A stretch of DNA of 64,000 bases from Candidatus Anderseniibacteriota bacterium (GCA_046350855.1 JAXLZM010000003.1:12311-76310), one strand, 5' to 3'. Shown: positions 11,242 through 63,989, counted from the first letter of the stretch. Program-made: numbers and translations. Notes: generated from the sequence alone by a model not told the origin.

Positions 11242-11264
11242 ACTCCAAAGGGTACCGTCCTCAC

Positions 11265-18853: not shown

Positions 18854-18875
18854 ACTGCCGGACTAGCACACTTAG

Positions 18876-48060: not shown

Positions 48061-48719
48061 AAAGATGCTTTAGTTACACCCTCTATCCAACCAAGAATAG
48101 ACAATAATAGCCGAGTGTCACAGATAACGATATCGAAGGTACCATATGGTAACGAATCTCGCTTACCCTTGCTGTTGCGGTTGCGTTTTCGATATGTTTT
48201 GTAAAACTGTTTTAGCGGAATACCAGAAACTTTTGACCAGTAGTGTTCTGCGAACCGATGGTCAAGGTGACCATGGATATGAATATGTCCTCTGAACTTT
48301 TTTTCTGGAACAGCACAAATCTCTTTAAAAAACCGCATCATTATTTGAACACTTTTTGGATCTCCATTGGAGAACCCAACTAAACCGTGATTTGTCTTTC
48401 TGCCCTCTCCCCAATACAAACCAATGCCCAGAATCCACAGATCACGCCGCGAAATCCGCTTGATCGATGCTGCCGCTATACTAGTAGTAACCGCACGTTT
48501 TACCATTTCATGTCTGAGCCTCGTTTGACGCCTCGATTCAATAACCTCAATGCTTGTATGACGTGCTTTAAGCCTATTAACTTGTTTTGGAGTTAGAGAT
48601 ACGTCGCGGACCCAAAGACTTGCTGTACTTTTTGAAATAGCAAGGGCTCGCGTAATTTGTTTCAAGGAGTATCCCTTTGAGCGTAAAATTCTTGCCCTAC
48701 GTCGCTCGATAAGCTTCAT
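48051..48719 (-). CDS. Putative homing endonuclease-like protein (HTH plus single LAGLIDADG-like motif ILGIGLYWGEGRK), paralog of 14434..15120; last 10 nt overlap tRNA-Val(TAC), stop is TAG of the tRNA D-stem
   Basis: Paralogous to 14434..15120. AT-rich by eye. AT-rich promoter-like upstream region with TATTATGAT. Confidence 0.5.
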   Translation of the reverse strand: MKLIERRRARILRSKGYSLKQITRALAISKSTASLWVRDVSLTPKQVNRLKARHTSIEVIESRRQTRLRHEMVKRAVTTSIAAASIKRISRRDLWILGIGLYWGEGRKTNHGLVGFSNGDPKSVQIMMRFFKEICAVPEKKFRGHIHIHGHLDHRFAEHYWSKVSGIPLKQFYKTYRKRNRNSKGKRDSLPYGTFDIVICDTRLLLSILGWIEGVTKASLGT

Positions 48720-48756: not shown

Positions 48757-48790
48757 ATTTTTTAAATTAAAAGCGCGGGAGTACCGCGCT
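48757..48790 (-). terminator. Intrinsic terminator downstream of small ORF 48853..49122
   Basis: On the minus strand AGCGCGGUACUCCCGCGCU is followed by UUUUAAUUUAAAAAAU. Confidence 0.55.
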
Positions 48791-48804
48791 CTATACAGTA
48801 GTTA

Positions 48805-48837
48805 GGGAGAGGGAGGATGAACCACGGTTCATCCTCC
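48805..48837. repeat. SD-containing hairpin element, copy A (AGAGGGAGGAUGAACC-AC-GGUUCAUCCUCC)
   Basis: 12-bp perfect stem. Shares the AGAGGGAGGA prefix and the ...CCUCC closing arm with the elements at 63150..63186 and 63557..63589. Confidence 0.6.
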
Positions 48838-48852
48838 GGGAGAACTAGGGAG

Positions 48853-49122
48853 CTAGGAAGCGACGTCGCTCGCGAAGGTGGTCTCGGCCAGCACAGCCAA
48901 GCCCGCCAGACTACCCTGGTCGAGCATCTCGAAGTGCTTGCAGATCGGGCAACCGTGTGCACCGGCCGGGTGGATGAGGAGACGCTGCGTTTGGTGGTTG
49001 GTCTTGGGATTGTCGGTCGAGCCGTTGGGGCAGAAAGGTGAACGATCGCTGAACTGCCAACCGAACGAGTACGCAATGGGGAGTTTGCGGAGCTGATCCT
49101 CGGTCAGATTCTCAAATGCCAT
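48853..49122 (-). CDS. Hypothetical 89-aa Cys/His-containing protein (CPNG...HGCPICKH), own RBS and terminator, flanked by 16-bp perfect inverted repeats
   Basis: Strong SD (AAGGAG, 5 nt, ATG). Terminator at 48757..48790. Inverted repeat TACAGTAGTTAGGGAG at 48794..48809 and its reverse complement at 49152..49167. Confidence 0.5.
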   Translation of the reverse strand: MAFENLTEDQLRKLPIAYSFGWQFSDRSPFCPNGSTDNPKTNHQTQRLLIHPAGAHGCPICKHFEMLDQGSLAGLAVLAETTFASDVAS

Positions 49123-49287
49123 CCTTCTCCTTATGGGGCGTATCCGAAGCCCTCCCTAACTACTGTATGTGGTTCATACTGAACAAATCCCCTGAGGGGA
49201 CAAACAATGAGCTTATAGTAGTTGTGAGGTCGCGTCAAGCCTGGGCCTTTTTGGATTGGTCCGTCGGCTTGTATCTGAATATGTTCT

Positions 49288-49373
49288 TGGTGCGCGAGGG
49301 GGGATTCGAACCCCCAAGCCTTGCGGCACATGCACCTCAAGCATGCGTGTCTAGCCAGTTGCACCACTCGCGC
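49288..49373 (-). tRNA. tRNA-Leu (anticodon GAG), long variable arm, CCA encoded
   Basis: The reverse complement gives GCGCGAG-TG-GTGCAACTGGCTAGACAC, anticodon stem CATGC/GCATG with loop TTGAGGT, a long variable arm and T-arm GGGGGTTCGAATCCCCC. Confidence 0.8.
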
Positions 49374-50025
49374 AGTAACCAGCAGGGTACGGATCTTCCC
49401 AGAGTATTGCAAGCGCCTTCTGTTTTTTTCTTGCCAGATGAGGAGAGGCGCTATCTTGATAGAAAGCTGTCAGGATTTTGCGTGCCTCGTGTTTAGAAAA
49501 CTTGGCCTGATAGGCCCCCGAACCACTTGTAACATGGCCCTTGGCACCAATAGTTTGTTGTGTTGCTTTAACCAGCCACTTTGCAAATTGAGCACTAGCC
49601 GTTGCGAAAGCTACATAGAACATAAAACTGCTCCGCCAACGCGGGTCCCAATATGCATAGACAGTTCCATCACCGTCGAATAGGCCCCTTAAAAAGTCAG
49701 CAAAAAAGTTCGGTGGAATACTCAACTTACCTAGCGTTCTAGATTTTCTAGGAGTTAATCCAATCGAAAGTAGAAAACGATAAAAAGTAACATCTCCAAA
49801 CTGGAGCTGATAGCCATTGCTACGTCCTGTAAAACCACTTTTCTTTTTGCTTACCCGATTCTTAATCGCCAAACACTTTTTTAAGGTTTGGATAAGATCA
49901 AGATTATTAGATGTAAAAAATAGATGGCGACCGTCTGGAGAAAGACAACCATCGCTCGCCATAAGGCCAACGACATAGGCCATATTCGAGCTCCATTTAC
50001 AGTTTATCCGACCTAGTGGTCTCAT
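49351..50025 (-). CDS. LAGLIDADG homing endonuclease (two motifs: VVGLMASDGCL and LRGLFDGDGTV); last 23 nt overlap tRNA-Leu(GAG), stop is the TAG of the tRNA D-loop
   Basis: Classical double-motif LAGLIDADG. The C-terminal codons (ASGATG, stop) are read from the tRNA sequence GCGCGAGTGGTGCAACTGGCTAG. AT-rich by eye. Confidence 0.85.
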   Translation of the reverse strand: MRPLGRINCKWSSNMAYVVGLMASDGCLSPDGRHLFFTSNNLDLIQTLKKCLAIKNRVSKKKSGFTGRSNGYQLQFGDVTFYRFLLSIGLTPRKSRTLGKLSIPPNFFADFLRGLFDGDGTVYAYWDPRWRSSFMFYVAFATASAQFAKWLVKATQQTIGAKGHVTSGSGAYQAKFSKHEARKILTAFYQDSASPHLARKKQKALAILWEDPYPAGYCASGATG

Positions 50026-50047
50026 TAATTGACCATAGCAAATTCAT

Positions 50048-50065
50048 CTTAAAAAAAGATTAAAT
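50048..50065. repeat. 18-nt intergenic motif CTTAAAAAAAGATTAAAT (copy 3 of 3, one mismatch), 22 nt upstream of the LAGLIDADG start
   Basis: 17/18 identical to copies 1 and 2. Confidence 0.65.
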
Positions 50066-50089
50066 CCAGAGATCAACCTGGATAACCGC

Positions 50090-50734
50090 TTACCCTTGCA
50101 TCTCCCGCAAGAGCTTTTCTTTTTGGTGTTGCTCTTTGGCGGCTTTGAGCACGGCCGGAATCTTTTTAAAGTCTTCCATGAGGGTGCCGCGTAGACTGCC
50201 GTTATAGAGCGCCGCGGCGGGGTGGTAGAGCGGAAAGAACACTCGTCGGACCCCATCCGGTGCCAGCGCCCGCATAGGCTTGCCGTGACAGACCGAGATG
50301 CGCTTGTTTGGGATAAAGTGGCCCAGACTGTGACGACCGAGCAAGACGATTACGACGGGATCGATAAGTTTAACCTGCGGACCGAGCCAAGCAGAGGTAC
50401 ACGCCGCGACTTCGTCGGGCAGCGGGTCACGGTTATTAGGCGGCCGGGATTTAACGACATTGGTAATAAAGACGTCCTTACGGTCCATCCCGATCGACTC
50501 GAGCATCTCCTGCAAAAACTTCCCGGCCGCCCCGACAAAGGGTTTACCTTGGAGATCTTCGTTTTTACCGGGACCCTCACCAATAAACATCACCTCGGCG
50601 TGCGGATTGCCGTCCCCTGGCACGGCATTGGTGCGTCCTTGCGCCAAGCGACAGCGCGTACAGATTTTTACGGCAGCAGCAATCGCCTCCAAATCCTGTA
50701 TTTCTTGGGGTGATGGTGGCGCGGTCTCGGGCAT
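50090..50734 (-). CDS. Uracil-DNA glycosylase, family 4
   Basis: CTRCRL...GEGPG...FVGAAG motifs of UDG family 4. Confidence 0.85.
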   Translation of the reverse strand: MPETAPPSPQEIQDLEAIAAAVKICTRCRLAQGRTNAVPGDGNPHAEVMFIGEGPGKNEDLQGKPFVGAAGKFLQEMLESIGMDRKDVFITNVVKSRPPNNRDPLPDEVAACTSAWLGPQVKLIDPVVIVLLGRHSLGHFIPNKRISVCHGKPMRALAPDGVRRVFFPLYHPAAALYNGSLRGTLMEDFKKIPAVLKAAKEQHQKEKLLREMQG

Positions 50735-50738
50735 ACGG

Positions 50739-51827
50739 TCAGTCTAGTTGTTCAACCGTTTTTTTGAGCCAGGCCACGTCGGCAACTCGTCCCGACTCTT
50801 CCGTCTCGAGCACTAAGTCCTTACCCCGTACACAGGGTGAACCAATTACCGCCGCGAGCCCCTCGTACCCAATGTATCCCTTGCCGAGTGTGTGGTGCCG
50901 ATCGTGTCCGCCACCGAGCTTGGTCTTACTGTCATTAAAATGCAGCATGGGGATGCGCTTCCAGCCAATAAATTTGTCGATCTGACCAAAAACCTCGGCA
51001 ACTTTGTCGGGAGTACGGATGTCGTACCCCGCCGAGAACATATGACAGGTGTCCATGATAGCGCCGATGCGTTTTTCTCCTTTAAAGCGGCCTAGTATCT
51101 CGCCCATGTCCTCGAACTTGCCGCCCACATCGTTGCGCTGACCGGCCGTGTTCTCCAGGCAAATCACTACGTTTGAGTTTTTGGTCTTTTGCAGCACCTC
51201 GTCGAGCATCCGGGTCACACGGGCCTTGCCCTTTTTGACGCCCGAGCCCAAGTGGCTCCCCACGTGCATGACAAAATACTTTGCCTGGATGCGATCCATC
51301 AGTCCGACTTCGCGGATAATGTAGGTTTGCGAAAAATGCCACGTGCGATCGTCGGGCGAGGCTGCGTTTACATAATAGGGCGTGTGCACATAGACGTTAC
51401 GGATCGGCGACACGGTGCACGCCTGGATGAACTCCTTCTCTTCGGTCGGCGTCACGACCCGCCGCACCCGTGAGCGTGGGCTGGAAGTAAAAATCTGGAT
51501 GGCATCTAGTTCAAACTCGTTACCACGCTTGAGGGCCTCGCAGTAGCCACCTGCGATCGAGACGTGTGCACCAATCCCAACTTTGTGAGCGGCTTTACGC
51601 GCTCGTACACTACTCTGCCGGCTGAGCGGGTTGCTCAGGTTGGCCGTCTTGCGGCTCGCGTGGGATTGGTTTGCGGCTGACTTTGCCAAAGACTTTTGGC
51701 TTACCGTTTTTGACCGGCTTGTAGCCAATCGGTTTGGCAACCACGCTCGGCTGCCCCGTTCCCCCTGGGCCTTTTTGGGTTTTGCCGCTGGCGCTTTTAC
51801 CGTTTTTGCTGAGAGTCGCTTGCTCAC
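50739..51827 (-). CDS. nfo: Endonuclease IV (Nfo) with about 80-aa Lys/Ala/Ser-rich N-terminal extension; start uncertain (extension overlaps the CBS gene by 218 nt)
   Basis: GIGAHVSIAGG plus the AP-endonuclease 2 metal-binding pattern. No in-frame ATG or GTG lies between the 51827 ATG and the conserved core. Confidence 0.75.
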   Translation of the reverse strand: MSKRLSAKTVKAPAAKPKKAQGERGSRAWLPNRLATSRSKTVSQKSLAKSAANQSHASRKTANLSNPLSRQSSVRARKAAHKVGIGAHVSIAGGYCEALKRGNEFELDAIQIFTSSPRSRVRRVVTPTEEKEFIQACTVSPIRNVYVHTPYYVNAASPDDRTWHFSQTYIIREVGLMDRIQAKYFVMHVGSHLGSGVKKGKARVTRMLDEVLQKTKNSNVVICLENTAGQRNDVGGKFEDMGEILGRFKGEKRIGAIMDTCHMFSAGYDIRTPDKVAEVFGQIDKFIGWKRIPMLHFNDSKTKLGGGHDRHHTLGKGYIGYEGLAAVIGSPCVRGKDLVLETEESGRVADVAWLKKTVEQLD

Positions 51828-52275
51828 GTGCGATCAATTTAAGTAAATCGTGCCTACTCACAATACCAACCAATTTGCCGTTGTCGATGATCGGGATCGG
51901 GTTGGCCTTTGTTTCTACCATCTTGGTGGCCAGGCGGCTAATCGGATCGCTGGATTTAAGTGAGATCACGGGACTGGTCATGATGTGTTCGGCCTTGCTC
52001 CCCAGCAGCTTTTGGATCTCGGCCTCAACACTGGCGCTCGAACGCAACATAATAAAACTATGCAGCGCCGACAAAAATTGCGGCGGATGAATGTTAGATT
52101 TTTGAGAAACGAGATCGCTATCCGTTACGATTCCGACAACACTGTCCTTCTTGACCACAGGCACACCCGTGAGATTGTGTTGCACCATCAGCTGCGCTAC
52201 ACGCGCAACCGACGCCAGCGGCCCCACAGTCACAACCTGCGTTGTCATGATGTCTCGCACGTATTTCTCGTTCAT
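51610..52275 (-). CDS. CBS-domain pair protein with Lys/Pro-rich C-terminal tail
   Basis: Two CBS motifs (IMTTQVVTV...LTGVPVV; IMTSPVISL...IPIIDNGKLVGIVSRHD). Confidence 0.7.
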   Translation of the reverse strand: MNEKYVRDIMTTQVVTVGPLASVARVAQLMVQHNLTGVPVVKKDSVVGIVTDSDLVSQKSNIHPPQFLSALHSFIMLRSSASVEAEIQKLLGSKAEHIMTSPVISLKSSDPISRLATKMVETKANPIPIIDNGKLVGIVSRHDLLKLIAREQATLSKNGKSASGKTQKGPGGTGQPSVVAKPIGYKPVKNGKPKVFGKVSRKPIPREPQDGQPEQPAQPAE

Positions 52276-52293
52276 TTGCGTTTTGCATAGAGA

Positions 52294-53619
52294 TTAGTTT
52301 TTGCCGGTAGAACCGCTTGCAGGCTTGCTGCCGTCGGTAGAACCAGACGCAATAGATGATAGCAGCTTTATGGTTTTTCGGTTGCGAATAATTTCTGCAA
52401 CGTAGTCGCGGTAGGCGGGCGACTGCACGGTCCTGATCACCTCTTTATTACCGGGGTGCTGTTTAAGCGTAGCGTTGATTTCTGACTCGACCTCCGCGTC
52501 GCTGGCTTTGATGTCCTCTTGGTTAGCGATCTTACGGATCAAAAGGCCAATGGTAATACGTTTTTTGGCTTGTTCGACCCAACCTTTTTTGAGGTCGGTT
52601 AGCGATTTGTTGATGCTGGTGAGGTAGTCGTTAAAATTTGCGCCCTGCTGGACTAGACTCGACTCAAGTTCGCGTGCCATCTTGTCGAGTTCTCCCTGCA
52701 AGAGCACGTCCGGAATCTCGAGCGTAGTTTGTTCAGCTAGTTTGGTGAGAAGCTCGGACTCAAAGCGTTCATTTTCTTTAGCCTTGGCCTCGAGTTCGAG
52801 GTTTTTGCGGAGTTGCGACTTGAGATCGGCCAGATTTTTAAAATTACCAACCGATTTTGCAAACGCGTCATCCAACTTTGGCAGAACTCGTTCCTTAACG
52901 ACGTGTAACTTGATGTGCGCTTCGGCCGCCTTACCCGCCAAGTCTTTTTTGCCGTAATTCTTGGGGAACGTAATCGGGAAGTCTTTTTCTTGACCAGCGC
53001 TCATACCGATGAGTGCCTCCTCAAACCCTGGGATAAACATGCCATCGCCAATCACAAGTGGATGCTTGGTCCCCTGCCCGTGCTCGAGCGGGACCTTTTT
53101 TTGACTGATGTTAAAGTCAATCTCGACCGCGTCGCCTTTTTTGGCGGGGCGTTTGACTTCGGCCTCCTTAGCTCGGTCGCGGGCAAACATGCGCAGCATG
53201 CGCTCGATTTGCTCATCAGCTACTGACTCGGACTTTTTTTTGGGCGTAAGTTTTTTATACTCCGGCAGACTAAACTCTGGCAGAACCGCCGCGGTGGCCT
53301 TAAAAATGAGAGGATTCCCAGGGGCAAACTTAACAATATCGATCTTGGGTTGACCGATGACCTCCAGCTTTTTCTCGAGGACCGCTTTGCCATAGACCTC
53401 AGGGATTGCGAGATTGGCGCTCTCTTCTAGGAGGTGCAGTGGATCGATGTGCTTTTGGGCCAAACTGGTCGGTACTTTGCCCGGGCGGAATCCCGGCAGC
53501 GACAATTTAGCTGCCAAACGTGCAAGGGCGCGAGTTTTGTAGTTTTGCAGTTCTGCCTCAGAGACCTCGATAGTGAGCTCGACCGTAGACTGCGGTAGTT
53601 GCTTTATATCTAGCTTCAT
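52294..53619 (-). CDS. tig: Trigger factor
   Basis: N-terminal ribosome-binding region (GFRPGKVP), FKBP-type PPIase middle domain and C-terminal arm. Confidence 0.9.
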   Translation of the reverse strand: MKLDIKQLPQSTVELTIEVSEAELQNYKTRALARLAAKLSLPGFRPGKVPTSLAQKHIDPLHLLEESANLAIPEVYGKAVLEKKLEVIGQPKIDIVKFAPGNPLIFKATAAVLPEFSLPEYKKLTPKKKSESVADEQIERMLRMFARDRAKEAEVKRPAKKGDAVEIDFNISQKKVPLEHGQGTKHPLVIGDGMFIPGFEEALIGMSAGQEKDFPITFPKNYGKKDLAGKAAEAHIKLHVVKERVLPKLDDAFAKSVGNFKNLADLKSQLRKNLELEAKAKENERFESELLTKLAEQTTLEIPDVLLQGELDKMARELESSLVQQGANFNDYLTSINKSLTDLKKGWVEQAKKRITIGLLIRKIANQEDIKASDAEVESEINATLKQHPGNKEVIRTVQSPAYRDYVAEIIRNRKTIKLLSSIASGSTDGSKPASGSTGKN

Positions 53620-53704
53620 TGCGCAAAGAGGCTAACGTTTTATCGGTTTTAGCGCAACCAAAAAGCTATTTTGCTATGAAAACCGTAGTCACTAACAACA
53701 TGAG

Positions 53705-54049
53705 TTATAGACTGAGTAGCGCAACTCCGACGATTGCTAAGCCAACCCCAATTGCCTTGAGGAGAGTAAAGCGCTCATTAAAGAAGAGGATCCCACTACC
53801 TAGGACGATGAGAGCGAACAGCGCTGTTTGGACGATACCAACGGTGCCTAGTTCTGCCTTTTTGACAAAAACATAGAGAAAAATGAGGATCTGTAAAATG
53901 TAGAGTGCCACAACGATAAGCATCAGTGGATTACGGATGGCCTGCGCGTAACTATCAGTTCCAACAGAAACTTTCTTGGTGAGTACGTCTGCCACAGCAA
54001 CGGCCGTAACCGCTACAACAATAAAAAGTAACATCGTAAGTTTGTTCAT
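53705..54049 (-). CDS. Small four-TM membrane protein (SMR/DMT-like)
   Basis: 114 aa with four hydrophobic helices. Confidence 0.4.
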   Translation of the reverse strand: MNKLTMLLFIVVAVTAVAVADVLTKKVSVGTDSYAQAIRNPLMLIVVALYILQILIFLYVFVKKAELGTVGIVQTALFALIVLGSGILFFNERFTLLKAIGVGLAIVGVALLSL

Positions 54050-54123
54050 GGTTATATCCTAGCAAAAACCGGCCGCTAGGGCCGGTTTTGTTGAGGTTAC
54101 TTGGTTTAATTCAACCAAAAAAA

Positions 54124-56151
54124 TTAATGGAAGAACCGCTCGAGCCAGTGGCCGTACTGCAAAAAGAGAAACGCAAAGATAACGGCGAGCGTGTTGATGA
54201 CTTTGATGAGCGAGTTGAGGGCGGGACCGGCCGTGTCCTTGTAGGGATCGCCGACGGTGTCGCCAACCACGGCGGCCTTGTGGGCGTCGCTGCCCTTACC
54301 ACCAAACTTACCTGTCTCGATAAGCTTTTTGGCGTTGTCCCAAGCGGCTCCCCCGTTGGTCATCTGGATAGCCAGGAAGAACCCCGACAAAATCACACCG
54401 ATCAACATGGCACCTAGCGCCACGGGGCCCAGACCAAAGCCTACGAGGACCGTCACACCGATGGCAACGACCGCGGGCATGATCAGATACTTTTGAGCTT
54501 CTTTAGTAACGATATCAACCACCTGCGCGTAGTCCGGCTTGTCGTGGCCTTCCATAATCTTTTTGGTGCGGAATTGTTCGCGCACGGCTTCCACTACTTT
54601 ATTGGCGGCTTTGCCTACGGCGGTCATGAGCTGGCTTGCAAAAAAGAATGGCAGGGCCGCTCCGATAAAGAGGCCGGCGATGACGAGCGGGTTCTCAAGG
54701 CTGAGGCTCTTGCTGAGCGTCTCGTTGGAGATTGCCTCGCGGATCTCGTCTGTGTAGGCAGCAAAGAGTGCCAAGGTTGCCAGCGCGGCAGAACCAATCG
54801 CGTATCCCTTGGTGATCGCTTTAGTTGTGTTGCCAACCGCATCAAGCGCATCCGTTTTGGTGCGTACTTTAGCAGGCAGGTTGGACATTTCGGCGATTCC
54901 GCCAGCGTTGTCGGTGATTGGTCCGTACGCGTCGATGGCGACGATGATACCCATGGTCGAGAGCATCGAGACCGCAGCGATTGCGATTCCGTAGAGGCCG
55001 CTCAAGTAGTACGCGCCCAAGATTGCGGCCACGATCACAACCACCATTGGCCAGGTCGAGCGCAGTCCGACCGCGAGTCCGGCGATAACATTGGTACCCG
55101 GTCCGGTCTCGGAGGCTTTAGCGATTTCGTTAACCGGTTTGCGGTTGCGTGCCGTAAAGACATTAGTAATTGCGATGATGAGGACGGTTACGACGAGACC
55201 GATCAGCATGGTTCCGTACAAGCGCATGTCGTTGCCGGCGTACCAGCGGTTAATCAAGTAGAACCCGATGCCAGCTAACACAATCGTGACGCCTGCTCCT
55301 TTATAGAGGGCGCCGGTGATGTTCATCCCGCGGAGGCGAACAAAAAAGCTACCGATGATAGAAGCGACGATGGCGACCGCACCAAGCAGGAGCGGCAGTA
55401 GCACACCTCCGAGACCAGCAACGGTCGCGGTGGTGCCGAGAATCATAGCGGCGAGAAGCGTAACGACGTAGGTCTCAAAAAGATCCGCGCTCATGCCGGC
55501 TGTGTCGCCGACGTTGTCGCCCACGTTGTCGGCGATGACTGCGGGGTTGCGAGGATCGTCTTCTGGGATGCCTTTCTCGACTTTACCGACCAAGTCGGCG
55601 CCCACATCTGCTGCTTTGGTGTAGATTCCGCCACCCACGCGCGCAAAGAGCGAGACGAGGCTGGCGCCAAATCCAAAGCCGATCAAAAGCGCTGGGTCCT
55701 TAAACCAAGTATAAAATCCTGCCACGCCGAGCAGACCAAAGCCTACTACGACCATTCCGGTCACCGTGCCTGCGGTAAAGGCAACACGGAGCGCCTTAGA
55801 CAAAGTGTCCTTAGCGGCCTCAGCGGTTTTGACGTTAGCGCTGACGGCGATTCGCATACCGATATAGCCCGCCAAAGCGGAAGTCACCGCTCCGGCCGCA
55901 AAGCCGACGGCGGTTTGCCAGTTCACAAAGGCGTAAAAGAGTGCGGTAACCACGACCGTGAGCAGCCCGATCACGCGGTACTGACGTTTGAGGTAGGCAA
56001 GCGCCCCCTCTTTAATAGCGGTCGCGATTTCGACCATGTGGCGCTGGCCATTCGGGGTCGCACGCACGCGCAAGGCTAAAAACAAAGCAAACAAGAGCGC
56101 CAATCCGGCCACTCCTGCTGCAATGTACTCAACGGCAATGTTGTAGATCAT
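54124..56151 (-). CDS. hppA: Membrane-bound H+-translocating pyrophosphatase; K-type (likely K+-independent) GNTTKAITKG motif
   Basis: Multiple TM helices and PPase motifs (DNVGDNVGD, GNTTKA, DTVGDPYKD). Confidence 0.9.
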   Translation of the reverse strand: MIYNIAVEYIAAGVAGLALLFALFLALRVRATPNGQRHMVEIATAIKEGALAYLKRQYRVIGLLTVVVTALFYAFVNWQTAVGFAAGAVTSALAGYIGMRIAVSANVKTAEAAKDTLSKALRVAFTAGTVTGMVVVGFGLLGVAGFYTWFKDPALLIGFGFGASLVSLFARVGGGIYTKAADVGADLVGKVEKGIPEDDPRNPAVIADNVGDNVGDTAGMSADLFETYVVTLLAAMILGTTATVAGLGGVLLPLLLGAVAIVASIIGSFFVRLRGMNITGALYKGAGVTIVLAGIGFYLINRWYAGNDMRLYGTMLIGLVVTVLIIAITNVFTARNRKPVNEIAKASETGPGTNVIAGLAVGLRSTWPMVVVIVAAILGAYYLSGLYGIAIAAVSMLSTMGIIVAIDAYGPITDNAGGIAEMSNLPAKVRTKTDALDAVGNTTKAITKGYAIGSAALATLALFAAYTDEIREAISNETLSKSLSLENPLVIAGLFIGAALPFFFASQLMTAVGKAANKVVEAVREQFRTKKIMEGHDKPDYAQVVDIVTKEAQKYLIMPAVVAIGVTVLVGFGLGPVALGAMLIGVILSGFFLAIQMTNGGAAWDNAKKLIETGKFGGKGSDAHKAAVVGDTVGDPYKDTAGPALNSLIKVINTLAVIFAFLFLQYGHWLERFFH

Positions 56152-56168
56152 GAGGTGTTAGGTAAGGA

Positions 56169-57479
56169 CTATTTAGTTTCTTCCTTTTTCTCTTCTGCTT
56201 TAGGCTCTTCCTTTTTCTCTGGCTGAACAGCCTTCTCCTCAGCTTTCTTCTCCTCCGGTTTTACTTCGTCTGGTTTTTCAGCTTCTGGCTTTTTCTCGTC
56301 AGCCTTGGATTCACCTTCGGCTTTCTTGTCGTCGGTTTTAGCTTCATCCTTCTTCTCTTCTGGTTTGGCTCCATCCTTAATCGGTTCACCATCTTTTTTG
56401 GTGCCCTCGGACTCTGGTGAGACAACGTCGATCTTCCAACCGGTCAACTTGGCAGCCAGACGAACGTTTTGTCCGCCCTTACCGATTGCCAATGACAATT
56501 GATCCTCATCAACCACGACCTTGGCGCGCTTCTCTTTTTCGTTGAGTTCAACCTTGAGAACTTTTGCAGGCGACATGGCGTGGCGCAGGTATTGATCCTG
56601 ATCCTCATCAAACTGAATAATGTCAATTTTTTCACCACCAAGCTCGGCAATCACAGTCTGGACGCGCGTTCCGCGCTGACCAACCGCTGAACCGACTGGA
56701 TCAACACCCTCTTGCTCGGTTGCAACGGCGATCTTGGTGCGGCTGCCGGCTTCGCGAGCGATGCCTTTGATCAACACAACACCCGAGTAGATCTCAGGGA
56801 CTTCGAGTTCAAACAATTTAGCAACAAATTGTGGGTGCGAACGCGACAAAATAATCTCCGGACCACGGCTCGTATCCCGAACCTCCGCCACATAGACCTT
56901 GAGACGCATACCAACCGTGTAGGTCTCACCCGGAATCTGCTCATGCGGATACAAAACACCGGTGGCCTGGGCCAAATCGACGTAAACGTTGCGGCCTTCG
57001 ATGCGCTGCACCGAGCCGTTGATAATCTCGCCTTCTTTACCCTTAAACTCACGCGATACGATCTCGCGCTCGGCCTCGCGCAAGCGCTGGATGATGACCT
57101 GTTTAGCGGTTTGTGCTGCGATGCGGCCATAGGCAGCGGGCGGATCGAGCTTAGTCTCGATCACATCGCCAACCTTGGCGGATTTCTTCTTCTTTTTGGC
57201 GTCGGCTAGAGCGACATGCTCGCGCGGGTTGAGCTCTTTTTCTTTTTGTTCATCCGGATCCTCGGGGATCGACTCAACGACCGTCTTTACATCAAAAACC
57301 TGCGAGCTGCCGTCTTGCACACTAAATTTGACCTTGATGTTTTGGGTCGGCTCGCCAAAATCCTTGCGATACGCGGCGGCGAGTGCAGCCTCGATCGTCT
57401 CGACGATTTTTTCGACCGGAATGTTTTTCTCAGCGGCGATTTGTTCGATTGCGAGCTCAAATTCTTTCTTTTGTGCCAT
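56169..57479 (-). CDS. nusA: Transcription termination/antitermination factor NusA with Lys/Glu-rich C-terminal tail
   Basis: N-terminal domain, S1 and KH domains (KVELNEKEKRAKVVVDEDQLSLAIGKGGQNVRLA). Confidence 0.9.
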   Translation of the reverse strand: MAQKKEFELAIEQIAAEKNIPVEKIVETIEAALAAAYRKDFGEPTQNIKVKFSVQDGSSQVFDVKTVVESIPEDPDEQKEKELNPREHVALADAKKKKKSAKVGDVIETKLDPPAAYGRIAAQTAKQVIIQRLREAEREIVSREFKGKEGEIINGSVQRIEGRNVYVDLAQATGVLYPHEQIPGETYTVGMRLKVYVAEVRDTSRGPEIILSRSHPQFVAKLFELEVPEIYSGVVLIKGIAREAGSRTKIAVATEQEGVDPVGSAVGQRGTRVQTVIAELGGEKIDIIQFDEDQDQYLRHAMSPAKVLKVELNEKEKRAKVVVDEDQLSLAIGKGGQNVRLAAKLTGWKIDVVSPESEGTKKDGEPIKDGAKPEEKKDEAKTDDKKAEGESKADEKKPEAEKPDEVKPEEKKAEEKAVQPEKKEEPKAEEKKEETK

Positions 57480-57691
57480 GGTGGTTGGTTTAACTAAGTA
57501 TTTAGGTAGTACAAAAAAGGGCTAGCCTACTCAGCTAGCCTTATGGGGCAACCATATATGAGAATAAACCCACTGTCAACCCTTGATTGACAAAGTGCTA
57601 TTTTTGTGTTAGCAAGGACCGTCGTCCTTTGTCATACCGTGCCTCCCCGCTAGTGCTCTTATGACGAGAGCATTGCCAGGGAGGCAGGACA

Positions 57692-58027
57692 ATGAAAAAG
57701 TTTGGTTTTGATTTTCCGTGGCGGATGATAGGGATCGTAGTCGCATTAGTAGGGATAAGTACCTTCACGATCGATCTGTACTTCGGCCTCAGGAATGGTT
57801 GGGCAATCAGCACGGTCCCACCGGCCATTGCAGAGAAGTATCCCTTCATGACCTACCGCACCTGGTACCTCTATATCGAGGCGTTACTTGCGTTGATGGG
57901 TTGCACGCTCTTCTTGCTTTCCTGGATCAAGAATCCATTTGAGCGAATGGGGCACTGGCTTTCCGCAAATATCAAGGAAGGCTTTTTGTCTGGAGGCAAA
58001 AAGTCTGGCTCCAACAACGTAAATTAG
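57692..58027 (+). CDS. Hypothetical small membrane protein (three TM helices)
   Basis: GGGAGG SD 7 nt upstream of the ATG. Hydrophobic helices. Confidence 0.45.
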   Translation: MKKFGFDFPWRMIGIVVALVGISTFTIDLYFGLRNGWAISTVPPAIAEKYPFMTYRTWYLYIEALLALMGCTLFLLSWIKNPFERMGHWLSANIKEGFLSGGKKSGSNNVN

Positions 58028-58052
58028 CGATTCAGCAAAATGGAGAACACCA

Positions 58053-59168
58053 ATGATGCAAACCGCGATATGTGGAATCGGAATGCACATGAGCCTGCAC
58101 CTATCGCAGGCACTGACACAGCGTATGAATCTCGAGCAATCCCTCGAACAACGTCTCTCGGTCAAACAGTCTCTTAAGCTCGCGCTCAAGCTGTACCTCA
58201 AGCGCGAGGACGAGATCAAGAAGCTCTACGCCAAAGCGCTGCGTCTGGGCAAGGTGTATCGGTACAAGCGCTACGGCATGGAGTTCGAGTTTGCTTGCGT
58301 GTCCGTCAAAGACACGCCGCCCGAGATTTACAAGCACTCAGGACACGCGTTCTCGCACTGCTTGTTCAATCCCTGGGAGGCATTCTTTGGAGGCATCAAG
58401 TTCGCCCTGTCGCGCGGATCGTGGTTGCTCTTTGTGATCGAAGACATGTACGGAGAGCCGCTGCCTCAAGCCTGCATTGACTACGCGGCGGTACACGAGC
58501 GAGGAGAACAAGTCACCCTAGGCGATCACAACCTGGCCTCCAAGCTCGAGTTCGCTATCGCGGCCAAGGAGCAAAAGCTGCGCTGGTACATGGAGTGGAC
58601 CGAGGCGACCTGCCCAGTTAAGTTTGCCGATGTGTTTACCTACCAAGTGCACGTGGAGCTCCCACAAGGCGAGGAGGCTGCGGAGCTGGATGCCTGTCTA
58701 GAGGTGTTTCAAGCGAGTGCAGAGGCCCAAGCAGTACGCAGCATGATGGAGGAGTTCGAGTGGCCGATGTCGCTCCTGCGCAAACTCGAGCTGTACGCGG
58801 AGGCCAACGACACGATGGCAGGCCACGTGACACGTATGTTCGAGAGTTGCAGCGTAGTCGTCTCAGGGGCATCGACGCCGATCGGCATCATCAATGGCAA
58901 GATTGGAGAGCTGCTTACTAAAGAGCTCACCAAGATTGCCACGGGTGAACTACGCCGGTGCTTGAGTATCCCTCGTCTCTCGACGGTTTGGGAGCAGGGC
59001 TACAGGCAACTCTCAGCGGTCCACGCGGAGATGGTCATCAAACGCGGTGAACTCGTCGGCATGCTGGCCTTCGCGGATGAACTCAAGGATCTCGAGAACG
59101 GTGGCTCGCTGCCCAACAGAGGCGTTTTCTCGCCGCACTTTGAGGAGGCTCTCAAATGGGTCAGCTAG
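58053..59168 (+). CDS. Hypothetical protein (371 aa) with Gln/Leu-rich heptad N-terminus
   Basis: Long ORF with normal composition. No recognised catalytic motif. The N-terminus superficially resembles sigma-54 region I, but no sigma-54 core is present. Confidence 0.5.
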   Translation: MMQTAICGIGMHMSLHLSQALTQRMNLEQSLEQRLSVKQSLKLALKLYLKREDEIKKLYAKALRLGKVYRYKRYGMEFEFACVSVKDTPPEIYKHSGHAFSHCLFNPWEAFFGGIKFALSRGSWLLFVIEDMYGEPLPQACIDYAAVHERGEQVTLGDHNLASKLEFAIAAKEQKLRWYMEWTEATCPVKFADVFTYQVHVELPQGEEAAELDACLEVFQASAEAQAVRSMMEEFEWPMSLLRKLELYAEANDTMAGHVTRMFESCSVVVSGASTPIGIINGKIGELLTKELTKIATGELRRCLSIPRLSTVWEQGYRQLSAVHAEMVIKRGELVGMLAFADELKDLENGGSLPNRGVFSPHFEEALKWVS

Positions 59169-59348
59169 CAGCTAAACGTAGGGAGCAACGAATTTCGTTG
59201 CTCCTCTTTTTTTATTTCGACCTACCGAGCAGCAATCAAGCTCAAGATTGACAAACGGCAAAAAATATGCAATGATCTGTGGTCCTGATGGCTGCGAACG
59301 TTGTTTCCAATCGGCCATAGCGAGCCGCACCCAAGGAGGTAAATCGCG

Positions 59349-59792
59349 ATGTTCAAGAAGCATACGGTTTTCATTCATCCGTCGCTGCGCAAGATGCTGG
59401 AGGATCGAGGCTACGCTTACGAGATGCGGCTGGCACTGCACGCAGCACTGAGCTTCACCACTTTGCTCGTTAGTGAGCACCTACGCCGTGAGTACCAGGG
59501 TCCGTGGGAAGTGCACGAGGCTCACTTCAAAAAGCTCTTAGGCCTGGGCTGGAAGTACGCCGATGGTTTGCACGCTGAGTCCAACGATCTCACTGGGGCG
59601 CTAGAGAAGGCCTATCGTATCGAGTCGACCATCAGGCGCTACATGATGGACAAGATGCTGCGCGTCGATATGCGCTTCTACTGTCGCGGCGAAAAAGAGT
59701 CTTTCTGGGAGATCGACTTTGAGGTTAACCAAGAGGGGCAACTCGTTGGCTTCGGCTCAGGAAGTCTCTTTAGAAAGAAGGTCGCTGGCTGA
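59349..59792 (+). CDS. Hypothetical protein (147 aa)
   Basis: Co-oriented with its neighbours. No domain recognised. Confidence 0.4.
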   Translation: MFKKHTVFIHPSLRKMLEDRGYAYEMRLALHAALSFTTLLVSEHLRREYQGPWEVHEAHFKKLLGLGWKYADGLHAESNDLTGALEKAYRIESTIRRYMMDKMLRVDMRFYCRGEKESFWEIDFEVNQEGQLVGFGSGSLFRKKVAG

Positions 59793-59894
59793 ATCATCCA
59801 AGGGCACCAACGTCGTTACGTTAGTGCCCTTCTTTTTTCTCATACATTCTTCGACCAACTTGCCTGCGAACAAGCCATCACCCATGATGTACAC

Positions 59895-60956
59895 ATGGAA
59901 AAAGCGTATGAAATTTCAGGTGGACTCAATACTGGTCGGGAAGAATTATACAACGAACTCAAAATCCCTAGAGAAGAAGGCAAGCTACCCGTCGAGGGAG
60001 AACTTTCCAAAACACCAGATCACCTCGAGATCATCGAGATGAGCGACGCATTGATTCAAAAAGAGTTTCAAGAATTAGGCCTGTTGCAGCCGATGTTTTT
60101 AGCGCCGGAACGAGTTCATTACTTTTCTGAAAACGAATTCCAAAAACATTACGCGAAGCCAACCGGTAAACCGAATTACGAAGTTGGCGGATACGCAGAT
60201 ATACACCTTGGTGCGACATACATTTCCGTAGAAAATCCGAATGTCCAGGATTTCCTTGTGGAGTCACGCGGAGGCGTACGTTATGCCGCGGGGGACATTG
60301 CATTAGAAGAGTTCCCGCATGACGATCCAGAACGTGAGAAGAAAATTGATATTCGTGCCGACGAACTTGAAAGCAATTGGCACGCGCAGGTAAAAAAGCT
60401 CGCACTGCTTGCGCGCACCATGCATGAGGCCTTACACCTTGCCTCCTTTGAAAAATACTATAAAAACAGTAACGACGAGTACCGTGGCTCGCGGAGCGGA
60501 TACTATGCGTATTTGGATGGTAAGGGGTCATTTGCAAGTCTCAATGAAGCCATTACAGAAAAAATTGCCTGGGAGCTGGTCGACAAAAAGCTAGAAATGG
60601 TGCCCGAGGGCCCGATCGAATGGAAGAGAGACACCAAAGCGAGAACCGAATCGTACGATGATGATAGGTACATTCTTGACATAATTGTCGAAAAGATCGC
60701 CGCACAAAAACAGGAGTTGGGCGATGTCGTTTGGAGAAGATTCAAAATGGGTTACTTGAGTGGACGAGTTATGCATTTACGGGATATCGAACGTACATTT
60801 GGCAAAGGCGCGCTGCGTATGTATGCGGAGCTAACTCCTGAAACCGTCGAAAAAAATAAACGAGTACTCGTGACCTATTTTGAGAGCGATGACCCTAAAG
60901 AACGGGCTGAGCTTGAAAAAGAGATTCGCGAGAAAACAAAAAGTCCCGCACAGTAA
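59895..60956 (+). CDS. Hypothetical protein (353 aa) with HExxH motif (MHEALHLASFE); AT-richer than surrounding DNA
   Basis: HEALH plus a downstream Glu suggests a zincin-like metallopeptidase fold. Composition shift seen by eye. Confidence 0.45.
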   Translation: MEKAYEISGGLNTGREELYNELKIPREEGKLPVEGELSKTPDHLEIIEMSDALIQKEFQELGLLQPMFLAPERVHYFSENEFQKHYAKPTGKPNYEVGGYADIHLGATYISVENPNVQDFLVESRGGVRYAAGDIALEEFPHDDPEREKKIDIRADELESNWHAQVKKLALLARTMHEALHLASFEKYYKNSNDEYRGSRSGYYAYLDGKGSFASLNEAITEKIAWELVDKKLEMVPEGPIEWKRDTKARTESYDDDRYILDIIVEKIAAQKQELGDVVWRRFKMGYLSGRVMHLRDIERTFGKGALRMYAELTPETVEKNKRVLVTYFESDDPKERAELEKEIREKTKSPAQ

Positions 60957-61069
60957 TACTGTACGGGACTAGTCCAGCGGTCCCGCCCACCCTTATTGGT
61001 GATCTTGATGGCTAGCCAAGATCGGCTTTCGTGGTGGATCCCCGCACACCCAACCGTTCTGCAAGAGGC

Positions 61070-61540
61070 CTACTCCTTGTCGTTCGACAAGTAGCTACGA
61101 ATGATGTCGGCCAGCTCAATCACCCTTTGGGGCGAGAACTCGACCGTTTCTTCACCATCCTGCTCCCAACGGACAAAGAGCTTGCGATCCACTCCGAGCG
61201 CCTCGAGGTCAGCGATCTGCCTGGTCAGCAATGCCTTGTGGTCGTCTCGCGCCTGCACTTCTGGCGTGACTATTTCGACGTCATAGTAGTCGTGGTAGTC
61301 AAAGTTGATCGTATGGCCGGCCGCAAAGTGGCATATCAGGCCGTGGCTTTCGCCACTGAGCGTCTCCGTGAGTGCCTGCCGCAGCAGCTCACGAAGTTCG
61401 CCAGCCGTGCTGCGCCATTGGGTACTCTGACCCGAACTATGGCACATCGAGGAGATGTTGATCTCCTGGCTGTCTGGGACGCTCCCAAGGCGGTTAGACC
61501 ACTTGCAGGCCTTTTCGGTCAGTCGTTGACGATCGTCCAT
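61070..61540 (-). CDS. Hypothetical protein (156 aa)
   Basis: ORF convergent with the 59895..60956 gene. Confidence 0.4.
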   Translation of the reverse strand: MDDRQRLTEKACKWSNRLGSVPDSQEINISSMCHSSGQSTQWRSTAGELRELLRQALTETLSGESHGLICHFAAGHTINFDYHDYYDVEIVTPEVQARDDHKALLTRQIADLEALGVDRKLFVRWEQDGEETVEFSPQRVIELADIIRSYLSNDKE

Positions 61541-61753
61541 CGTTCACCTCCTTTTTACTGCGGGGCCAACCGCATTTGTAATGTACGAGAGCCAAAGGCT
61601 CTTTCGCAGGTTACGAGTTCTACCAGCTAGCTCTGGATGAACTCATCTTCTACGAGAGAGCTGCGAGTCAGTAGATACCGACTTGCGAGCTATGCGGGAA
61701 TTACGCGTCGCACTGCGCGTCCGTTGAACGTCGGCAACGGATCCGAGGCGTGA

Positions 61754-62416
61754 TCAGACTTCGAACCGAATCCCGCCTGCATGCACGATTGGTGCGAGCA
61801 GCGAATCCGTCACGGCCGCTCGCCGGAGGCGCTCATCCCGGATGACGATACAGTAGGGAACGCTCGCAATGTACGAGCGAGTCCGCCTGTCCGTCGCCGC
61901 AAGCGCTCTCTGGAGAGGTGCATCTCGACCTGACTGCGCCAGCACCCAGCGGATGCACTCGTTATCGTCCCGATCCTCGAGTAGCCAAGCGACATCCTGC
62001 ATCCATGCAGTGTCGAAAAGCGTCTGAGACTGGAGGTCCTGCAAGTGCTCGTGCAGGATGTCGCACCGAGCTAGCGCGAGCTGGACGAGCGCATCGGCCT
62101 GTTCACCGGTCAACGAGCGAGCCCACAGTGCTGGGATTCCAGCCTGCTCGCTTGCGAGCGTCATGATCTCATCCAGGCTCCGGAGTTTTCTCCCCGAGGG
62201 GAGCTCCTGGAGCCTTGCATACAGCGCAACCGCCACGGCCTCCGTGTATGCACTACCGATTTCGCTCAGCTCCGATACGTAATTCACTAACCACGTGTCG
62301 GTGCAGTCCTTCAGCCACTCTCTGATAGGAGAGTGGATCGCCGCCAATGGCGGCAAGGTCAGGTCCAACATTTCGTTTTTCCTTTGGTTGGCACTGTTTT
62401 GGTTGGATGCCGCCAC
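61754..62416 (-). CDS. Hypothetical protein (220 aa)
   Basis: Long ORF with no recognised domain. Confidence 0.4.
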   Translation of the reverse strand: MAASNQNSANQRKNEMLDLTLPPLAAIHSPIREWLKDCTDTWLVNYVSELSEIGSAYTEAVAVALYARLQELPSGRKLRSLDEIMTLASEQAGIPALWARSLTGEQADALVQLALARCDILHEHLQDLQSQTLFDTAWMQDVAWLLEDRDDNECIRWVLAQSGRDAPLQRALAATDRRTRSYIASVPYCIVIRDERLRRAAVTDSLLAPIVHAGGIRFEV

Positions 62417-62559
62417 GATATGTAGCGCTCCAGTAGTTTATAAAGGTACATTGAGTCAAAGACTCTTTTTTACAGGACGAAGTGCGTTTGTGCAGATTCA
62501 TCCGGTAGAAAAGAGGATCAAGTCGACGACACAACTTGATCACACGGTTTCACCAAGGG

Positions 62560-63072
62560 CTATGTGTTGCCCCGATGCCCCCGCTCACGAAACCGATCAA
62601 GCAGCGTCGAACGCCTTGGCCGTGAGATAGCTTTCGACGTTTCGGACGGGTTCGACGACGCGGATCGGTCACTGCCGTACTTGTGTTGGGCAAGCTTCGC
62701 TTCCATCTCGGCCCAACTTCGGCGATAGTTCCGCAACATGGTGCGGATCTTGGCATCAACCTCGTGAGGGTTTTTGTCGACCGTCCCGGTATAGTACGAG
62801 CCAAATCTACGGATGCCCTGCTGCTCGAGCACATGACGCAGCTTGCCGACTTGGCGATCGGCAATCTTGGCCGGCTGCAGAAGCGCTGGTACCAGGCCGA
62901 GGCACATGACGCAGTGTTTACCGTTCATCCCGTCGCAGCCGCAGTATGAGCAACCCGTAGGTCGTGCGACTTTGTGGCGACTGGTGATGCGGTAGACATG
63001 GCTATCCTCGAACCAGAGCACGAGCTCCTGGCGACGGAAAGTTACAACACGGTCGTAGTAGTCATTACCCAT
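62560..63072 (-). CDS. Hypothetical protein with Cys cluster CSYCGCDGMNGKHCVMC (SWIM-like or zinc-ribbon)
   Basis: Start set at MGNDYYD (ATG at 63070-63072), which has an AAGGGGG SD. C-terminal Arg/Ser-rich tail. Confidence 0.45.
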   Translation of the reverse strand: MGNDYYDRVVTFRRQELVLWFEDSHVYRITSRHKVARPTGCSYCGCDGMNGKHCVMCLGLVPALLQPAKIADRQVGKLRHVLEQQGIRRFGSYYTGTVDKNPHEVDAKIRTMLRNYRRSWAEMEAKLAQHKYGSDRSASSNPSETSKAISRPRRSTLLDRFRERGHRGNT

Positions 63073-63149
63073 GGGCGCCCCCTTTCTTTTTTGAATTTTG
63101 AAGAACGTGAGATTGACTCTCTCCAAAACGACCACGCGAATGATCAACT

Positions 63150-63186
63150 AGGAGAGAGGGAGGAACGAAGTATGCTTCGTTCCTCC
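63150..63186. repeat. SD-containing hairpin element, copy B (GAGAGGGAGGAACGAAG-UAUG-CUUCGUUCCUCC)
   Basis: 12-bp perfect stem, with an AUG in the loop on the plus strand. Confidence 0.6.
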
Positions 63187-63556
63187 AATACCCATGAGGG
63201 CGCCTAACGGCGACAAGTCTCATGAATCGTAGAAGTGCGCATTGGTCCGGCACTGAGTGTCCTGTCTACTCGACAAGGCCAGCCCTTACCGTCAGGTCGA
63301 GCTACCCATTGCTCTTCCCGCTACTTCCGACACACGGCTGGATTTGTCCTATCCACTTGGGTGATGGAATCGGTCTCCAGACGCTCTTTGTTTGCCTGTT
63401 TTGCTTGTCCGCCTGACCATCACTAACGGTCTTAAGCGGCAGGTCAAACAGCCGAGGCATGGATGGATGCGCGCCATCCGCCCGACACTTTGTAATGAAC
63501 AAGAGCTTGTTGCCCTTCTTGAGAGATTCTCTGTTAGGGCGCGAGAGAATCGCTCG

Positions 63557-63589
63557 AGAAGAGGGAGGAACGAGCGATATCGTTCCTCC
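63557..63589. repeat. SD-containing hairpin element, copy C (GAAGAGGGAGGAACGA-GCGAUA-UCGUUCCUCC)
   Basis: 10-bp perfect stem with the same arms as copy B. Confidence 0.6.
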
Positions 63590-63665
63590 GTTGTTCGTAT
63601 GTCCAACGTCGACCGAAGACCCAGATTTCCCTAACGACAACCGCCTGCGCACGGTCGCCAGATAC

Positions 63666-63989
63666 CTAGAACGCTTCGGGGAGCTGGCCGAGCACTTCGC
63701 CCAGCCAGCGCAGGGTGAACCACATCGGCGTGGTCCGGTCCTTGCAGAAGTCTCCCGTCTCCTTGTTGAGGAGCAGGTAGTTGGCCTCCCGACCAATGCG
63801 GTTGCGGTTCCAGGCCTCGTTAAAGGCCAGGATGAACTCGCCCGTCGGTATCCCGCACGCACCGGTGAGTTTGTGCAGGATGGCGGTCGCCTCGGTGGTG
63901 CCGATGAAGTGGGCCACCTCGTCCTGACCGGTGCAGCTGAGCAACTCCTTGTAGATCAGAGCGAGACGGGTCATGGGCTGGGACATCAC
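63666..63989 (-). CDS. Hypothetical protein (107 aa)
   Basis: Balanced composition. Preferred over the overlapping Arg/Ser-rich frame 63302..63862. Confidence 0.4.
   Translation of the reverse strand: MMSQPMTRLALIYKELLSCTGQDEVAHFIGTTEATAILHKLTGACGIPTGEFILAFNEAWNRNRIGREANYLLLNKETGDFCKDRTTPMWFTLRWLGEVLGQLPEAF

Follow-up and report, generated by a model that had tools for sequence, protein, structure and literature searches.

Paired hairpins with Shine-Dalgarno-like stems in the accessory DNA of a Candidatus Andersenbacteria genome: possible punctuation of transcripts and a candidate structured RNA

A GGAGGA tract held in a perfect hairpin by UCCUCC raises the question of whether a ribosome-binding site is being hidden. 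Such hairpins occur in a 64,000-nucleotide (nt) stretch of the genome of Candidatus Anderseniibacteriota bacterium (GCA_046350855.1 JAXLZM010000003.1:12311-76310), hereafter the window. The host, to judge by matches of its proteins (locus tags U0517_), is a Candidatus Andersenbacteria metagenome-assembled genome (MAG) of the candidate phyla radiation (CPR), and the presence of NusA, trigger factor, FtsH and H+-pyrophosphatase identifies the window as bacterial chromosome. A preliminary description pointed out three of the hairpins, here called copies A, B and C, and took them for structures sequestering a Shine-Dalgarno (SD) sequence, such as a translational attenuator or thermosensor, or else for a small repeat family of the repetitive extragenic palindrome (REP) kind. 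In the reading favoured here, the SD likeness comes from the purine/pyrimidine make-up of a conserved stem base and marks no ribosome-binding site. The hairpins belong to a known kind of element, the structured repeats between genes that look like terminators.

The kinship of the three hairpins is confirmed. The 10-mer AGAGGGAGGA is found three times in the window, always on the + strand, against an expectation of 0.10; none of 100 shuffles reaches three, and no extra copy appears in the window at one mismatch. In A, B and C alike, GGAGGA and UCCUCC stand in the two arms of perfect hairpins of 10-12 bp, and the loop of copy B indeed holds an ATG, on the + strand at 63172. The whole window contains eight perfect hairpins of at least 9 bp, three of which are A, B and C; four of the others are ordinary terminator-type hairpins with A and/or T runs alongside.

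The family has further members. A Logan contig, L001, is the reverse complement of the window from 57517 onward, differs from it by 1 mismatch in the overlap and reaches 5.7 kb past the window end; it supplies the window-equivalent coordinates used beyond that end, and it carries a fourth copy, D. The stem of hairpin E, on the + strand of the window, is the stem of the other copies with one compensated change, followed by a U run. A sixth copy lies on L117, a contig from another sample, next to a homologue (62% amino acid identity) of ORF170, the open reading frame (ORF) that follows copy B. A covariance model of the first hairpin (HP1) plus its tail, searched against the window with filters off, scores the known copies at 31-43 bits and finds no further copy there, the next match being at 17.6 bits.

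Read in the sense of the neighbouring genes, HP1 is followed by a pyrimidine tract, CUCUCYC, which is the 5' arm of a second, abutting hairpin (HP2). No spacer separates the two hairpins in B, C, D or the L117 copy. Because the tract is the 5' arm of HP2, the AGAG prefix that had been listed in front of each hairpin is the 3' end of the abutting HP2, viewed from the other strand. The L117 copy has GGAGGAGCGAC-AGU-GUCGUUCCUCC as HP1, with one gene-sense G-U pair, and CUCUUUCUUGG...CCCGAGAAAGGG as HP2. The HP1-HP2 modules of C and D, about 86 nt long, are 92% identical, and the DNA after each is unrelated. Both carry GCCCUAAC in the HP2 loop, and CCCUAAC occurs in the tail of copy A.

HP1 and HP2 are conserved as structure, not as coding sequence. 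Not one HP1 pair is broken in the six copies (A to E and L117), and 6 of the 12 stem positions (5, 7, 8, 9, 11 and 12) vary on both sides. The base helix of HP2 likewise varies on both sides among B, C/D and L117. D has lost one G of the HP1 stem together with the matching C, and at one place in HP2 an A-U pair of copy C is replaced by G-C in copy D. Computed energies of the perfect HP1 stems are -14.1 to -19.9 kcal/mol. Beyond pairing alone, the stem base and tail, GGAGGA/UCCUCCCUCU, are kept in sequence. A coding origin of the C/D repeat was considered and rejected, as the peptide LPLLERFSxALTENLSRRA has no relative among 5.8 billion proteins, and the HP1 reading frame shifts between C and D with the hairpin kept.

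The same comparisons bear on the idea that the hairpins have no function of their own, being ordinary terminators or stem-loops made alike by recent segment copying, with the likeness of A fortuitous. C and D have clearly been copied recently, the family is very small, and terminator-like hairpins that combine a GGAGGA/UCCUCC base with a CUCU(U) tail are common elsewhere, in many phage and bacterial contigs. However, what copy A has in common with B to D is limited to 16-17 nt of the stem base and tail; the rest is different, yet every pair is kept. The three occurrences of the 10-mer against 0.1 expected, and the retention of the module beside a 62%-identical homologue in another sample, also speak against mere copying. 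We regard this explanation as distinctly improbable.

All genes adjoining A, B and C are on the minus strand, and in 6/6 copies (A to E and L117) HP1 has the orientation of the gene or unit just upstream. Copies A, C and E follow a stop codon at the distances given in Table 1, while B, D and the L117 copy stand at the end of a non-coding stretch. G-U pairs form in the gene sense in both hairpins of L117 and of D, and in HP2 of C. The fold energy is lower in the gene sense than in the antisense for copy B (-40.7 vs -33.5) and for the L117 copy (-43.9 vs -36.9).

A hairpin that opens with temperature or a ligand to free GGAGGA as a ribosome-binding site would require transcription of the + strand. 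The GGAGGA-UCCUCC pairing of every copy and the + strand AUG 7 nt after the SD in copy B are the features that gave rise to this proposal. The AGAGGGAGGA reading, however, is antisense to every flanking gene, an arrangement that the preliminary description had itself named as telling against such elements, and the strand comparison favours the minus strand. The only ORF behind the SD has 11 codons (in B); C has no start codon, and the ATG of A abuts the SD. No consistent start codon or ORF is seen on the other strand either: the sole candidate in the gene sense is a GUG in A, with 7 codons behind it. The stems, perfect and in the range of -14 to -20 kcal/mol, are strong ones. The SD-sequestering attenuator or thermosensor is therefore not upheld, and we consider it extremely improbable.

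Since all six copies are in gene sense and follow a stop codon or a non-coding stretch, a role at the ends of RNA units suggests itself. The proposal is that of a small, lineage-specific family of RNA modules whose reading direction is that of the adjacent genes, for A to D the minus strand. Each would start with a very stable HP1 on the conserved base GGAGGA...UCCUCC; the pyrimidine tract CUCUYYY right after it would be the 5' arm of an HP2 stacked on HP1. Placed at the 3' ends of ORF89, of ORF107, of a non-coding RNA of about 310 nt and of a 1.2-kb gene-free stretch, the modules could end transcription as leaky intrinsic terminators poor in U, could hinder RNA decay in the 3'-to-5' direction, or could do both. 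In a co-directional gene array this would fix where the units end and how abundant they are relative to one another. The sequences show a paired structure with compensatory changes, a common orientation and position, confinement to accessory DNA and retention at one distant homologous locus; transcription of the modules, and an effect on RNA by termination or stabilisation, we infer from there.

Several features fit this proposal. The hairpins are GC-rich and stable with loops of 3-8 nt, and all six stand in sense orientation at the end of a unit. Hairpin E is a textbook terminator, because it combines the HP1 stem, with its compensated change, with a run of 8 U. The number of U in the 9 nt after the stem falls from 8 in E through 6 in L117 and 4 in B, C and D to 3 in A, so that a U-rich tail grades into CUCUCC. 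Terminator-like hairpins on a GGAGGA/UCCUCC base with such a CUCU(U) tail are, as noted, found in many phage and bacterial contigs. A promoter scan found no sigma-70-like promoter between the modules and the next genes, and copy B, like its L117 counterpart, stands between a conserved RNA and the adjoining gene; the modules are therefore expected to lie inside longer transcripts rather than to be complete stops.

Other observations weigh against it. Copies A to D lack a U run, and the terminator scan makes no gene-sense call for them. A canonical terminator stands 20 nt after copy A, which makes a terminator role of A redundant. C and D are slightly more stable on the + strand (-42.8 vs -39.5 and -39.7 vs -38.9). 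The conservation of GGAGGA/UCCUCCCUCU suggests a specific recognition factor, which a plain terminator does not need. Moreover, only five or six copies are known, with a single locus outside this genome. Weighing both sides, we put the chance that the modules punctuate transcripts as leaky terminators and/or decay barriers, probably inside longer transcripts, somewhat below even; it is the explanation that we favour.

The position of some copies ahead of genes permits another reading, in which the module is the cis-regulatory leader of the downstream gene. It could act as an antitermination RNA of the HK022 put type or as an anti-SD platform, with the tract UCCUCCCUCUCUCC either held in HP1/HP2 or paired with the purine-rich ribosome-binding site of the next gene. 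The put RNAs, which modify RNA polymerase, consist of two stem-loops without a spacer, and HP1 and HP2 are joined in the same way. Copies B, D and L117 end 41-65 nt ahead of a start codon, with the ribosome-binding sites of the downstream genes 40-65 nt past the module. Copy B is preceded by an RNA that is conserved, structured and leader-like; conservation of the stem base and tail exceeds what structure requires; and B and L117 share a conserved block, CUCUUYMAAAUUCAMAAARG, located after HP2 and ahead of the ribosome-binding site. On the other side, a canonical terminator stands between A and its next gene, C is followed by a non-coding RNA and not by an ORF, and E is a plain terminator. The ribosome-binding region of ORF170 shows no significant sequestration or structure (z = +0.9 and +0.2), and no similarity to an Rfam family was found. 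A leader function is possible but rather unlikely.

The stretch between C and B is of particular interest. The preliminary description had two of the hairpins bracketing about 500 bp without an ORF; the interval is indeed ORF-free, but the gap is 377 nt (405 nt from start to start). About 310 nt of it are conserved at L117 32-366, where blocks are 80-100% identical as compared with about 68% for the DNA in an alignment that includes the protein gene. The conserved blocks are described by the patterns GTCGGGCGGATGGCGCGCATCCATCC and GGAGACCGATTCCNTNACCCAAGNGGATAGGACAAATCC. Substitutions between 63187-63493 and L117 number 15/14/13 by codon position, and stops occur in every frame of both sequences. 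The consensus fold has compensatory pairs, plus G-U pairs that work solely in the gene sense, and alifold gives -60.0 in gene sense vs -55.7 in antisense, with -37.2 vs -27.0 for block 2. The module itself keeps its place at L117, ending 41 nt before the start codon (44 nt in the window), but with different loops and upper stems.

The stretch 63187-63493 is thus a candidate for a new structured RNA or a long leader ahead of the Cys-rich ORF170. No Rfam match was found for it, and its block patterns have no match in viral contigs. A decayed gene was rejected as its origin: the B-C interval is unlike ORF107, ORF170, ORF89 and the region upstream of D, has stops in all frames and shows no 3-nt periodicity. 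The modules could even be the processing or termination signals of an RNA-centred CPR accessory cassette in which the ~310-nt RNA, with a module on either side, is coupled to the Cys-rich 170-amino-acid protein and the GGAGGA/UCCUCCCUCU base is recognised by a dedicated factor, an extension that we regard as improbable.

Every copy lies in strain-specific DNA. The comparison is with L038, an 868-kb metagenomic contig of a close relative that is collinear with the window and whose NusA protein is 92% identical. L038 is without the 8.6 kb from 57557 to window-equivalent 66150 (L001 3551-12144), which in our genome lie between a cupin gene and the nusA promoter. This island contains a TrmB-like regulator, nine genes without known relatives, 1.2 kb without genes, and copies B, C, D and E; neither an integrase nor a flanking repeat was seen. 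Except for the TrmB-like regulator, its ORFs have no Pfam, PHROGs or PADLOC match. Copy A lies in a variable slot between tRNA-Leu and tRNA-Val, which holds ORF89, copy A and a helix-turn-helix (HTH) gene in the window and a different 467 bp in L038; at this locus neither the alignment with L038 nor a comparison between the two small Cys-containing proteins is strong enough to use. The REP-like family of the preliminary description comes close to this picture of a small family of structured intergenic repeats; five copies are known in about 70 kb, all within two accessory segments.

This distribution raises the possibility that the palindromes act as DNA, as mobile or recombinogenic elements that mark cassette joins in the island, of the kind of REP or bacterial interspersed mosaic elements (BIME), of the ends of IS200/IS605-type miniature elements or of attC-like junctions. 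All copies are in DNA absent from the close relative, and C and D form 92%-identical direct repeats around one small gene, with unrelated DNA following each. That gene, ORF107, is a mosaic. Its 3' half (63665-63834) has 88% DNA identity to 179-348 of L036, a contig from another sample; the match stops right at the stop codon, the sequences are unrelated in the 5' half and downstream of the gene, and no module follows the relative on L036. The HP1 stems are perfect palindromes, as expected from quasi-palindrome correction, and attC-core-like CCCTAAC/GTTAGGG motifs stand beside A, C and D.

Other findings are at odds with a DNA-level role. No recombinase, Y1 transposase or integrase domain was found in the scanned ORFs at or beside both loci. 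Neither inverted repeats at the module ends nor a target-site duplication is present. The order GTTAGGG...CCCTAAC is opposite to that of attC, and the CCCTAAC heptamer is not enriched, with 7 found vs 6.1 expected. The G-U pairs would become G-T mismatches in DNA. The module holds the same position beside a 62% homologue, contrary to recent insertion, and no copy was found in L038 or, with the covariance model, in about 1 Mb of related CPR loci. We judge a DNA-level role unlikely.

Two specific element types were also rejected. A miniature inverted-repeat transposable element does not fit, since the two ends of the module, GGAGGAACGA... and ...AAGAAGGGCAA, show no inverted repetition and the flanks share no duplication. 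For a palindrome-associated transposable element, the IS200/IS605-type miniature element, the flanks 5' of HP1 all differ (TTCTCCC, GGGTATT, GAACAAC, AACTCTT), no TnpA was seen, and the B-C interval is conserved together with the neighbouring gene in L117.

Searches for relatives elsewhere were negative or within chance. Rfam, applied at the gathering score to the window and at E<=10 around both loci and to L001 and L117, returned tRNAs and noise only. A hairpin-only pattern has 32 scattered, unrelated matches in genome contigs, one of which (L025) has the AGAG prefix, within chance. The HP2 core pattern has no match in viral or metagenome contigs, and neither blastn nor tblastn gave a match against phages and plasmids. 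For diversity-generating retroelements or CRISPR-like arrays, no long direct repeats were found in the window and no tandem structure in L001. Separately, in Chloroflexota MAG contigs (L015, L016, L019 and L032) matches to the GGAGGAACGA hairpin stand among several adjacent AACGAC...GTCGTT hairpins, which look like a separate hairpin-repeat family.

The positions of the modules and of their neighbours are collected in Table 1.

Table 1. Modules and adjoining features, in window coordinates unless stated otherwise.
Feature	Position	Strand	Description
HTH gene	48051-48719	-	Leaderless-looking; after promoter-like region downstream of the copy A terminator
Intrinsic terminator	48770..48792	-	Canonical; 9-bp GC-rich stem + U run; directly after copy A
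Copy A tail	48793..48811	-	CUCUCCCUAACUACUGUAU; at HP2 position, degenerate; 17 nt perfectly complementary to 49152-49168
Copy A HP1	48812..48837	-	11-12 bp; gene sense GGAGGAUGAACC/GGUUCAUCCUCC; + strand arms GGAGGATGAACC/GGTTCATCCTCC; begins 15 nt past ORF89 stop; covariance-model score 33 bits
ORF89 (U0517_03040)	48853..49122	-	Small Cys-containing protein; good ribosome-binding site; copy A comes after
Partner arm of 17-bp perfect inverted repeat	49152..49168	-	Just upstream of ORF89 ribosome-binding site
Gene preceding hairpin E	58053-59168	+	Hairpin E starts 13 nt past stop
Hairpin E	59182..59213 (hairpin 59182-59204)	+	GGAGCAACGA-AUU-UCGUUGCUCC then UCUUUUUUU; HP1-like; 34.5 bits
ORF170 (U0517_03120)	62560..63072	-	Cys-rich; one clear homologue only; start 44 nt past copy B HP2 end
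Copy B HP2	63117..63158	-	CUCUCUCC...GGAGAGAG with inner hairpin; no spacer to HP1
Copy B HP1	63159..63186	-	12 bp; + strand arms GGAGGAACGAAG/CTTCGTTCCTCC, loop TATG; 42.7 bits
Conserved non-coding stretch, C to B	63187..63493	-	Candidate structured RNA or long leader ending in copy B
Copy C HP2	63513..63563	-	CUCUUCU-GAG-AUUCUCU / AGAGAAU-CUC-AGAAGGG; loop has GCCCUAAC
Copy C HP1	63564..63589	-	10 bp; + strand arms GGAGGAACGA/TCGTTCCTCC; begins 76 nt past ORF107 stop; 40 bits
ORF107 (U0517_03125)	63666..63989	-	D upstream, C downstream
Copy D HP1+HP2 module	Window-equivalent 64052-64128; L001 5573-5649		
Copy D HP1	Window-equivalent 64103-64128; L001 5573-5598	-	Outside window, 514 nt past C

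The genes beside the modules have few relatives. ORF89 has none outside its own genome. ORF170 has no match in Pfam, PHROG, PADLOC or PDB, and its AlphaFold model is unusable, with a predicted local distance difference test (pLDDT) score of 45.

ORF89 is enclosed by a further repeat. The segments 48793-48809 and 49152-49168 form a 17-bp perfect inverted repeat around hairpin A and ORF89, and a third, imperfect copy is at 49214-49229. In the ORF89 message its arms would bring the two untranslated ends, 5' and 3', into pairing around copy A. Further upstream, on the minus strand at 49351-50025, an ORF of the LAGLIDADG homing-endonuclease type lies directly upstream of tRNA-Leu (49288-49373) and overlaps it; the ORF is missing in L038, where UDG and tRNA-Leu are 49 bp apart. 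The window has 12 tRNA genes in all, scattered singly across the 64 kb and on both strands.

Upstream of copy D, L001 4354-5572 (window-equivalent 64129-65347) comprises 1.2 kb without a called gene. The segment combines an AT-rich core with a perfect hairpin of 16 bp (L001 5091-5135) and other inverted repeats of long range, and may be a second non-coding RNA ending in a module. Elsewhere in the window, a TAGC..CTTAAGAAAAGATTAAAT motif is found on the + strand at 11253-11282, 18864-18893 and 50036-50065. At each of these three sites a minus-strand gene starts about 10 nt downstream, and the motif may serve the organism in promoters or leaders.

The hairpins themselves are a modest result, and they illustrate that an SD likeness inside a palindrome says little without its gene context. 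They do, however, gain interest from their surroundings. The modules occur only in strain-specific DNA, and their host belongs to the CPR, where next to nothing is known about mobile elements and gene regulation; they could be a signature for tracing one accessory-gene pool. They also delimit a non-coding stretch that is better conserved than the adjoining protein gene and has compensatory pairs, which makes it a candidate new structured RNA. This bracketed stretch is the part most deserving of follow-up.

Several known systems invite comparison. RNA thermometers and SD riboregulators such as ROSE and fourU also pair a GGAGG-type with a CCUCC-type sequence in a hairpin. The modules differ in their position, at 3' ends or between genes, in serving neither a start codon nor an ORF, and in having perfect, strong stems in place of weak, meltable ones; the reading put forward in the preliminary description is, moreover, antisense to the flanking genes.

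Integron attC sites are defined by RYYYAAC...GTTRRRY core sites on either side of an imperfect palindrome (57-141 nt) and by an intI gene in the vicinity. Like arrays of attC sites or Vibrio cholerae repeats, copies C and D are structured direct repeats of about 86 nt around one small gene without relatives, with an ORF-less "cassette" adjoining and GTTAGG/CCTAAC-like motifs. In the modules, by contrast, the order of the core sites is reversed or the motifs are 340 nt apart, two hairpins replace one bulged stem, no integrase is among the scanned ORFs, and the other genes of the island are packed without such repeats.

With REP/BIME and the stem-loops that shield mRNA from 3' exonucleases, such as the malE-malF REPs of E. 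coli and the puf hairpins of Rhodobacter, the modules share their nature as short repeats between co-directional genes, a presumed reading at the RNA level and a likely effect on the stability of mRNA segments. They differ from REP/BIME in the very low number of copies in the DNA covered, all of them in accessory DNA, and in their fixed two-hairpin layout without alternating orientation. No REP-associated tyrosine transposase (RAYT) gene was seen; about 30 ORFs of the window and L001 were scanned against Pfam, and none is a Y1 transposase.

The put RNAs of HK022 are similar in having two adjoining stem-loops (<=1 nt apart), a size of about 70-85 nt, several copies per mobile element and a place in a transcribed region ahead of genes. 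No sequence relationship to them is shown, copy A differs in lying after its gene and before a terminator, and an action of the modules on RNA polymerase is putative. Intrinsic terminators share with the modules a stable, GC-rich hairpin in gene sense soon after a stop codon or RNA gene, with a pyrimidine tract next; E is canonical and the L117 copy borderline canonical. What sets A to D apart from such terminators is a CUCUCC-like tail with 3-4 U that doubles as an arm of HP2, together with the conserved sequence of the stem base.

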